From IMG/VR virus record IMGVR_UViG_3300031801_001562: 64,000 nucleotides of DNA; one strand, 5' to 3'. The notes under the pieces were generated by a model, which was not told where the DNA came from, ran no database searches, and saw only the letters and a program-made list of their open reading frames with translations. The position numbers were made by a program, and so were the translations under genes. This stretch comes from a virus (taxonomy: Duplodnaviria > Caudoviricetes). Of this stretch, positions 26,468 to 27,878 are shown one piece after another (the stretch's first letter is position 1; every line of letters begins with the position of its first letter).

Positions 26468-26542
26468 TGGCTGCCTAGGCTGGGCTCGAACCAGCGACAT
26501 TCTGATTAACAGTCAGATGTTCTACCACTGAACTACTAGGCA
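26468..26542 (-). tRNA. trnN: tRNA-Asn(GUU), canonical
   Basis: TGCCTAG/CTAGGCA-G-CCA, TCTGA-CTGTTAA-TCAGA. Confidence 0.95.
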
Positions 26543-26550
26543 TTAAAACA

Positions 26551-26759
26551 TGTGGGGTAGAGCCTAGACTATCCTGAAGGACAACTCTCGCAAGGCACTC
26601 GGGCCTCGTTTATCAAAAGTTATCCACTCCCTCACCCTGTGGCACGTACCGGCGGTCTTATTGGAGAGGCTTCTTAACTTCATCTAGGTAGAGTCACTTA
26701 GTCGCACTCAGTACTAGGGTTCGTCTCCCGCTCCTGGCTTTAGTGTCGTTTACCCCACA
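26551..26759 (-). ncRNA. candidate structured ncRNA (~209 nt) adjacent to tRNA-Asn
   Basis: 9-bp terminal helix TGTGGGGTA/TACCCCACA, internal stems GGATAAC/GTTGTCC and CGAGGC/GCCTTG, GC-rich island with no ORF in the track. Confidence 0.6.
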
Positions 26760-26761
26760 AT

Positions 26762-27010
26762 TTAAATCATCTTATACCATTCAGTAGGTATCTTATCTAA
26801 CATTATACAGCTTTTATAAGGGTGCGGCCGTTTCTTCATGAAGCTACGGGCGATCATATTATTATTATATATCCGTCCTTCAAATCGGCCATCGTTAAAT
26901 CCAACTATCAATCCACAATTCCATCTGCTAACAGTTAATGGCTCCATCGCTTTCACAGGAACTTCAGTAACTCCACACGCCGACAGCGCGCGCCTTATAA
27001 GTTTACCCAT
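26762..27010 (-). CDS. hypothetical protein
   Basis: short ORF. Confidence 0.45.
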   Translation of the reverse strand: MGKLIRRALSACGVTEVPVKAMEPLTVSRWNCGLIVGFNDGRFEGRIYNNNMIARSFMKKRPHPYKSCIMLDKIPTEWYKMI

Positions 27011-27055: not shown

Positions 27056-27072
27056 AGGGCGCGAAGCGCCCT
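27056..27072. other. GC-rich hairpin AGGGCGC-GAA-GCGCCCT
   Basis: perfect 7-bp stem after the HTH gene; no U-tract, so not called a terminator. Confidence 0.4.
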
Positions 27073-27080
27073 TCGGCACG

Positions 27081-27878
27081 TCACTTCTTCTCCAGACTAT
27101 CGCCAAAGGCTGTTTCCGGTAAAGAACGTTCTAGTTCCGTTAGTTGTTCATCTGATGCAGCTAAGTGTAGGACTTCCCCATATGCTTTCCTCTGATCTCT
27201 CTCACTCTCTAATTCTGCAATGAAATCATTTACATTCACTGTTGATCCTTTCTCATCTGGCCGGCTCTTCGCCGCCTTCTTCGACGCAAGTGTAGTTCTT
27301 TTTCTCCACGACTTCTTTGCTTGGTCCTTCCAGCTCTGGCCATCTATGTTTCCATCCGCTTGTAGTTTCTGTATTTTTCCACCGGCTGCTAAATAGTCCT
27401 CGACTGCGTTACTGATTTCTAAACTAGACATATCCCGTACATCAATCTCTGGCTCTTTCTTTGCAGTTACTCTCAGCTTGTTCTTATCAGCTCTCACTGT
27501 TCCTGAGAGTTTCTTTATTGCACTCATCCTGGCCCGTACATTAATCAGTGATTTAATCTTTTTCTTCTTTAGTAGATCTGATCCGGTTACTCCGCGTTTG
27601 ATCTTACCACTGATTGCTGCATTAGAGTATCCTGTAACATCTGCAATTTCTGCTACGGTCATTCTAGTATTCCCATGCAAGTCTACAGTGAATACTCTAG
27701 GATTTTTTCCCGAACGTTTTGCACCCTCTGAATTCCGCTGTAAATAAATTGTGTCTGCATCGTGATTAAACTTATGCATTAGATTACTCATCCTACAATA
27801 CGAAAGTCCAAAGAGCTCAGCTAGCTCTTTCATCGTGTATAGGGATTCGTGGAAACTGTATGTTTTCGCTTTAGCCAT
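27081..27878 (-). CDS. early DNA-binding protein with two HTH-like segments
   Basis: TMKELAELFGLSY and MTVAEIADVTGYSNAAIS; directly behind early promoter. Confidence 0.6.
   Translation of the reverse strand: MAKAKTYSFHESLYTMKELAELFGLSYCRMSNLMHKFNHDADTIYLQRNSEGAKRSGKNPRVFTVDLHGNTRMTVAEIADVTGYSNAAISGKIKRGVTGSDLLKKKKIKSLINVRARMSAIKKLSGTVRADKNKLRVTAKKEPEIDVRDMSSLEISNAVEDYLAAGGKIQKLQADGNIDGQSWKDQAKKSWRKRTTLASKKAAKSRPDEKGSTVNVNDFIAELESERDQRKAYGEVLHLAASDEQLTELERSLPETAFGDSLEKK

Follow-up and report, generated by a model that had tools for sequence, protein, structure and literature searches.

The minus strand of the 64,000-nt viral stretch IMGVR_UViG_3300031801_001562 (hereafter the window, meaning the whole stretch analysed) carries at positions 26759 to 26551 a 209-nt element whose 3' end lies 8 nt before a tRNA-Asn gene. 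Judged from comparison with its homologues, this element belongs almost certainly to a real family of structured RNAs. About 100 sequence-distinct copies were found in IMG/VR viral contigs and marine metagenomes, and their alignment defines a core of about 160 nt that, on this comparative evidence, is built round a three-way junction, with P1 as the closing helix and P2-P3 and P4-P5-P6 as the two long arms. The family is new, is absent from Rfam, and is of the general kind of phage tRNA-cluster RNAs with unknown function. From the loci recovered, it appears to be restricted to uncultured, T4-like marine phages that live in the open and deep ocean. The reading preferred here, whose chances we put at about even, is that of a gene for a stand-alone, compactly folded, stable non-coding RNA acting in trans. 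An initial annotation of the window had proposed an unassigned structured RNA 8 nt upstream of tRNA-Asn, and this proposal is borne out by the homologues and by strong covariation; a lack of homologues or covariation, or a strong match to a known family, which it had named as grounds for giving the proposal up, was not encountered.

Concerning the collection of homologues, the neighbouring helix-turn-helix (HTH) protein (27081-27878) was used as a query and led to two viral contigs (L002 and L003) in which the element also stands before tRNA-Asn and is 50 nt shorter. Motifs derived from the conserved blocks of this pair were then scanned against viral contigs, matching 17 stretches (19-mer), 28 (two-block pattern), 45 (5' motif) and 8 (further scan), and against marine metagenomes, where 88 stretches matched; of the loci returned from the latter (n=80), all 80 are confirmed by R1, a covariance model built from 13 short copies and the structure worked out in this analysis. 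R1 matches the window at 26549-26762 on the minus strand (115.4 bits, E-value 2e-27), the sole copy there, and one copy is present in each of two related viral contigs of 105 and 124 kb. The model also detects a divergent type, called type B to distinguish it from the type A of the window (L013:4931-5129, L005:10625-end, L036-L041, L158 and L161). Two copies are present on some contigs, namely A and B in L013 and L005, and a short A and a long A in L070.

Other collections gave no further members. The search of 50,697 deposited phage genomes by blastn, with the window copy, a short form and type B as queries, returned only tRNA or chance matches, and the nearest virus record (G001, a 31% fragment) contains no copy of the RNA. 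One exact-pattern scan of 185,579 prokaryote species genomes gave three matches, none of them confirmed by R1, which shows the absence of the exact motif only; two of the three were read and are an identical coding-region end, that is, chance matches. A scan for additional types with GTAAACGAC...AGTGCTCTAC returned the known types and two coding false positives only, and the motif GGAGCGGGAGACGAACCC, tried as a search handle, was discarded because its one match, in L001, lies inside a coding region and is due to chance.

The covariation is the evidence that carries the family. In the 85 distinct type A copies aligned to the model, a fitting that somewhat favours the structure, 93.3% of the cells are in standard pairs and 32 of the 46 pairs show compensatory changes. 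None of 500 shuffles of this alignment reached any of five measures, and pairing fell to 22-43% when the 3' partners were slid by 1-3 columns as a control. An earlier alignment of 22 sequences had given 91% of cells paired and compensatory changes in 22 of 40 pairs. RNAalifold, run beforehand on plain MAFFT alignments, recovered P1, P2, P3 and P4, and the top pairs of an unsupervised column-pair scan fall in the same helices, with no convincing additional tertiary pairs in that scan.

The strand can also be assigned. One conserved pair is GC in 43 sequences and GU in 42, and two others are U-G in 84 and 78 sequences; since the other strand, or a DNA cruciform, would have A-C mismatches in their place, the constraint acts on the minus-strand RNA. 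The fold of the single window sequence is no better than that of shuffles (z = -0.93 for the minus strand and +0.37 for the plus strand), so the case for a structured RNA rests on the comparison, which was graded decisive. The GC-rich island pointed out in the initial annotation is present (GC content 0.47-0.51 in the element vs 0.27-0.40 in the downstream flank), and the strings quoted there all occur where it had placed them. One mechanical open reading frame (ORF) of 39 aa overlaps the element, mostly in the segment that short-form homologues lack. A coding reading was rejected on the grounds that the indels among homologues are not multiples of three, together with the 51-nt domain difference described below.

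No known family accounts for the element. When the window was searched with Rfam 15 (4227 models), only tRNAs reached the gathering threshold, in agreement with the initial annotation, which had recognised no Rfam family. In a permissive search of an 801-nt region (E-value up to 10) the best non-tRNA match over the element was YrlA, which is driven by the tRNA and scores 15 bits where 69 are required, and in three loci with short type A and type B copies only tRNAs were found at E-values up to 1. ARAGORN and the Rfam tRNA and tmRNA models make no call on the element. On the YrlA score, an identity as a Y RNA acting with Ro60 was rejected; PF05731 (TROVE) is absent from the pair of related viral contigs mentioned above (105 kb, 59% complete, and 124 kb, 69% complete), with control genomes positive. 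Bacterial RNase P RNA was considered for the segment CCUAGAUGAA, which resembles the J18/2 region, and rejected, as no RNase P model matches at E-values up to 10. A long-range pairing AAAGCC/GGCU, corresponding to P4 of RNase P RNA (AAAGUCC / GGCUU type), was rejected as well, given that a G to C change in UCUAGG of L031 is compensated within helix P4 of the present model (GCUAGA/UCUAGC) while AAAGCC is unchanged. Resemblances to a tmRNA tag (GCAAACGAC...), to signal recognition particle RNA (CCAGGUCCGG), to 5S RNA and to hammerhead cores were rejected by reading and by Rfam. Annotation pipelines that rely on Rfam will leave the family unlabelled because it is absent from that database; the 8,495 unnamed IMG/VR candidate motifs of PMC10690425 may include it.

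The window copy (26551..26759, minus strand as are all features given here) is a long-form type A RNA. It starts with the P1 5' strand UGUGGGGUA (26751..26759), whose partner is the P1 3' strand UACCCCACA (26551..26559). This is the closing stem that the initial annotation had described, and all eight modelled pairs are compensatory across the 85 sequences. P1 is followed by J1/2 (AAC, 26748-26750), conserved in types A and B, and by P2, in which GACAC (26743-26747) pairs with GUG(AC)UC; the P2 3' strand GUGACUC (26691..26697) has its AC bulged, 98.4% of the P2 cells are paired, and an A-U pair is replaced by U-A in 16 of the 85 copies. Beyond an internal loop (UAAAG / GACUAA) between P2 and P3a comes distal arm 1 (26704..26742), formed by P3a (GCCAG / CUG-AGU-GC, within 26704-26738) and P3b (GGG/CCC, with compensatory changes in three of four pairs and 100% of cells paired). 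It ends in L3, a 7-nt loop (AGACGAA, 26720-26726) whose motif GACG is nearly invariant.

The second arm follows J2/4 (UA, 26689-26690) and begins with P4, where CCUAGAU (26682..26688) pairs with GUCUAGG (26563-26569); four of seven pairs are compensatory and 99.3% of cells are paired. P4 contains the CCUAGA/UCUAGG pairing of the initial annotation, which co-varies to CUUAAA/UUUAAG and GCUAGA/UCUAGC, and to UCUGG/CCAGA in type B. Next is J4/5, a conserved single-stranded segment GAAGUUAAGAAG (26670..26681). Its portion UGAAGUUAAG was invariant in the first alignments, partly since copies had been found by that motif; the variants GAAGCUAAAG and GAAGGUAAUAG were found independently, and type B has GAAAUUUAAG. 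The P5 5' strand CCUCUCC (26663..26669) pairs with a 3' strand in two parts, GGAG (26627-26630) and AGG (26573-26575), and co-varies as CCUAUCC/GGAUAGG, CCUAUAC/GUAUAGG and UUCUAUC/GAUAGAA. Between P5 and P6 there is an internal loop (AAUAAG / (U)GAG, within 26634..26662) of which J5/6 (AAUAAG) is the 5' side. P6, a 3x3 loop and P6a (GGU/GCC) lie within 26634-26656, P6 changing from ACCC/GGGU to ACUC/GAGU and P6a from GGU/GCC to GCU/GGC. The arm is capped by the tetraloop L6 (ACGU, 26644-26647), whose CGU pairs with ACG of L3. On the 3' side, the AGG part of P5 leads through J5/4 (AUA, 26570-26572), the P4 3' strand and J4/1 (CUC, 26560-26562) back to P1. A spacer, UGUUUUAA (26543..26550), brings a U-run directly after P1 and separates the RNA from tRNA-Asn (GTT) at 26468..26542, called by ARAGORN and by Rfam at 73.2 bits.

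Two other pairings suggested by the initial annotation did not hold. GACUA/UAGUC and GAGU/ACUC are complementary strings; they are not conserved in homologues and clash with the co-varying P2 and P3a. Hence the competition between GACUA/UAGUC and CCUAGA/UCUAGG, put forward as a switch or pseudoknot, fails, as only the latter is conserved. The tertiary contact supported by the comparison is a different one, between L3 and L6. Three positions of one loop are complementary to three of the other and remain so where the sequence changes: L3:L6 is ACG:CGU in 76 of the 85 type A copies, GCG:CGC in L060, GUA:UGC in the type B copies L036, L038-L040 and L161, GCA:UGC in L037, and GUA:UAC in L158, L013b and L041. 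By our own layer count the two arms have about 23 and about 28 stacked layers and leave the same junction, so that an intramolecular kissing contact is the simple reading, the comparative data being compatible with a contact within or between molecules.

The nested GGAUAAC/GUUGUCC stem around GAGGC-CCGAGU-GCCUU, also noticed at first reading, is real, and proves to be a lineage-specific accessory domain of the long forms rather than part of the core. This extra 51-nt hairpin domain (26576..26626) is inserted in the P5 3' strand, and seven of its 16 pairs are compensatory among 13 long forms. Short forms of about 160 nt, such as those of L002 and L009, lack it, and in type B it is J5/4 that carries an insertion, a hairpin unlike this one. 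A fixed core with a variable periphery is a typical feature of RNAs with a defined three-dimensional shape. Another peripheral variant was observed in the type B copies of L036, L037, L039 and L161, where P1 is enclosed by an additional outer helix (UGUGGG...CCCACA) and by a small hairpin on the 5' side. Moreover, in L013 (4732-5129) a perfect sigma-70 promoter is followed by type A, 36 nt, type B, and then by genes of the HIT family and of UvsX-like type, whose names come from reading the translations. The P1 3' strand of this type A copy fits an L012-type 5' strand and not its own, which suggests recombination between copies.

Regarding the genomic context, the RNA is co-oriented with its neighbours at most loci, and in the window all genes around it are on the minus strand. 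A same-strand tRNA lies within 120 nt in 18 of the 85 copies and within 20 nt in 13, with spacers of 3-13 nt. Some copies are sandwiched between tRNAs (tRNA-Asn, 7 nt, RNA, 12 nt, tRNA-Asp; tRNA-Pro, RNA, tRNA-Tyr), and the slot before tRNA-Asp holds type A in L004 and type B in L040. The promoter scan used a looser pattern, which matches 1.2% of background windows; 15 of 82 copies have the perfect form TTGACA-N17-TATAAT, which ends 16 nt ahead of the first aligned position, and this would place the start of transcription about 10 nt before P1. The window copy shows no promoter-like site upstream on its own strand, so it is probably co-transcribed with the genes upstream of it.

At the other end, a run of at least three U starts exactly at the end of the maximally extended P1 in 43 of 82 copies and within 0-2 nt of it in 50 of 82, and a run of at least four T occurs within 20 nt in 46 of 82 (56%), vs 10.8% in the background. 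A stable stem followed at once by a U-run, as in an intrinsic terminator, is therefore present, a stem closing a 150-200-nt domain being atypical for one. P1 reaches 12-15 base pairs (bp) in 29 of 85 copies, and should on that account be stable without a ligand.

In the preferred explanation, that of a stable RNA acting in trans, the RNA, which is read from the minus strand along with early genes and tRNAs, would be released as a discrete stable species. Its 3' end would arise by termination at the U-run right after P1, or by RNase P cleavage of the following tRNA at its 5' end, which lies at a distance of 3-13 nt (8 nt for the window copy), and its own 5' end from the promoter about 10 nt upstream or from 3' processing of the preceding tRNA. 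The RNA would then serve as a structured scaffold to which a protein, an RNA or a small molecule binds, with the conserved junction and the J4/5 strand as the likely working surface.

Small RNAs in such a position are known from T4, whose rnaC and rnaD (species 1 and 2 stable RNAs, 119-139 nt) lie inside the tRNA cluster on the same strand and have no known function (PMC3014915). The initial annotation had drawn this analogy, which stands as to position and not as to homology. The T4 rnaD and rnaC lie 1 and 6 nt from their neighbours, against 8 nt for the window RNA, but R1 finds nothing in T4 69500-74500 (L021) at E-values up to 1 and reading shows no common motifs. In addition, T4 rnaC ends in a tRNA-like T arm, which the marine phage RNA lacks, and the latter is larger, with a three-way junction and kissing loops.

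Several points weigh against the preferred explanation. At about 16 loci the RNA lies about 30 nt upstream of one gene (phrog_1574), which could mean regulation in cis. The U-run after P1 would, if truly terminating, lower the expression of the tRNA that follows it at some loci; it may instead be a processing or binding site. Furthermore, exact conserved motifs were used to collect the homologues, and this inflates the sequence conservation and may hide distant relatives, cellular ones included.

The loci upstream of phrog_1574 lead to the alternative of a riboswitch or attenuator, which we regard as rather unlikely. The junction would bind a metabolite or second messenger and stabilise P1, and P1 with its U-run would stop transcription before the tRNAs or early genes. 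The architecture resembles that of an enlarged purine-type aptamer, in that P1 closes a three-way junction with conserved strands and the two roughly parallel arms are tied together where their terminal loops base-pair. Some copies also stand just past a promoter, the U-run that follows P1 immediately in about half of the copies could serve as an integrated terminator, and types A and B are arranged in tandem upstream of a gene in L013. However, the marine phage RNA is about twice the size of such aptamers and has no Rfam riboswitch match, and its P1, often of 12-15 bp, should form without ligand. The downstream genes are functionally incoherent (tRNAs, the clamp operon, nucleases, the HIT protein), and some copies lie 6-7 nt after a tRNA, hence not at the start of a transcript. 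As for an expression platform, neither anti-terminator pairing nor sequestration of a ribosome-binding site was noticed on reading the flanks, for which no systematic search was made.

The L3-L6 contact could also be made between molecules, giving rings or cages of a self-assembling RNA, a reading that we hold to be improbable. The two loops are complementary and co-vary, and the comparative data fit this arrangement as well as the intramolecular one. There are precedents: GOLLD and ROOL, phage RNAs often near tRNA islands, form cages via kissing loops (bioRxiv 10.1101/2024.12.08.627333), and the kissing loops of manA RNA, which is shorter than 200 nt, join it into a 60-mer (bioRxiv 10.64898/2026.07.01.735769). 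GOLLD and ROOL share with the marine phage RNA an elaborate structure, phage origin, a frequent place beside tRNA genes and an unknown function. They differ in that the marine phage RNA does not match their Rfam models and is much smaller. At about 580 to over 800 nt, GOLLD and ROOL are 3-5 times larger. Likewise, manA and wcaG are structured RNAs of marine T4-like phages (cyanophages) whose function is unknown, but neither of their Rfam families is matched, and manA is described as an element of 5' untranslated regions whereas the marine phage RNA is often found between tRNAs. Against assembly speak the similar arm lengths, which by our layer count make the intramolecular contact geometrically simple, a contact of only three base pairs, the fact that no second pair of complementary loops was seen, and accessory domains that are not conserved.

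Equally doubtful is a decoy or mimic that would titrate a host factor acting on tRNAs, such as an anticodon nuclease or a tRNA-modifying or processing enzyme. The embedding of the RNA in tRNA clusters, the presence of two paralogous types in the same slot before tRNA-Asp, and, in L031 and L043, a gene for a CmoA-like tRNA methyltransferase placed directly upstream would suit such a role. The RNA itself offers little likeness to a tRNA: a T arm, a D arm and an anticodon-type loop are missing, and neither ARAGORN nor the Rfam tRNA model calls it. P1 and the loop-loop contact lie about 28 stacked layers apart, vs 12 bp in a tRNA, and a Ro60/TROVE gene was not found in the two related contigs (105 and 124 kb).

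Small self-cleaving ribozymes are common in phage polycistrons at positions between genes and tRNAs, where this RNA also lies. Self-cleavage that separates transcript segments, or an action on the tRNAs, would agree with the highly conserved junction and joining strands in a compact tertiary fold. We nevertheless consider a ribozyme very unlikely, as no Rfam ribozyme family matches, the hammerhead core (CUGANGA / GAAA) is absent from the junction on direct reading, and a conserved candidate cleavage site is not evident. Finally, a chance GC-rich spacer or a DNA-level element (origin or packaging site), in whose favour only the unremarkable single-sequence folding energy (z = -0.93) can be cited, is refuted by the compensatory changes in about 100 distinct homologues and by the conserved G-U pairs, and may be set aside with hardly any reservation.

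For about 50 years the small stable RNAs of T4-type tRNA clusters have been without an assigned function, and the RNA-only cages of the large phage RNAs near tRNA islands (GOLLD and ROOL) were shown only recently. The present family offers a compact and workable case, with more than 100 natural copies, a well-determined secondary structure and a tertiary contact supported by covariation. Two subtypes, natural variants of the accessory domain and clear transcription signals are on hand, and the size of 160 nt is suitable for synthesis, chemical probing, cryo-electron microscopy and screens for ligands or partners. Should the L3-L6 pairing prove to be intermolecular, which we consider improbable, as said, this would be the smallest tRNA-island-associated RNA-only assembly in phages, alongside GOLLD, ROOL and manA, and would give genes of the T4 RNA C/D type their first testable role, for example the sequestering of tRNAs or host factors early in infection.

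The protein neighbours of the RNA vary among loci. At about 16 of them phrog_1574 and then the gp45 sliding clamp follow, and at others NifU and a 2OG-Fe(II) oxygenase stand before the RNA and an SNase-type nuclease after it. The neighbours in L013, a HIT-family protein and then UvsX, were identified from translations and not by a profile search. Immediately upstream of the RNA there is in two contigs a gene for a CmoA-like methyltransferase dependent on S-adenosylmethionine (phrog_4752, annotated as 'tRNA methyltransferase'; L031:9007-9807 and L043:8670-9383, both on the minus strand). L049 (10553-11722, minus strand) and L050 encode, at a distance of about 200 nt upstream of the RNA, a protein of 389 aa in which a DruA (Druantia) domain is recognised (Pfam PF14236, E-value 7e-14).

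A type-II tRNA-Tyr-like gene, with anticodon GUA, a long variable arm and an encoded CCA, was observed about 10 nt after the RNA in L009 (5300-5390), L011 (3845-3935, approximate) and L018. It is not called by ARAGORN, and its L009 copy escapes the Rfam tRNA model at E-values up to 1; in other contigs an ordinary, called tRNA-Tyr occupies that slot. A 15-nt identity, GGAGGUAGACCGUAA, between the type B L3 hairpin and this gene in L009 and L018 is probably a coincidence, as other tRNA-Tyr genes lack it.

In the window, an 82-aa ORF (26762-27010, minus strand) lies directly upstream of the RNA. Its first residues (MGKLI) and its last (KMI) are common to a 21-codon ORF at the same place in L002, so the region between seems to be an insertion in the window or a deletion in L002. 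A search of viral contigs with the 82-aa ORF gave no relatives. Just past the stop codon of the HTH gene, a GC-rich hairpin of the GGGCGC-UUCG-GCGCCC type is kept in both the window (27057-27075, minus strand) and L002 (4833-4855), and may be a stabilising or terminator-like stem-loop.

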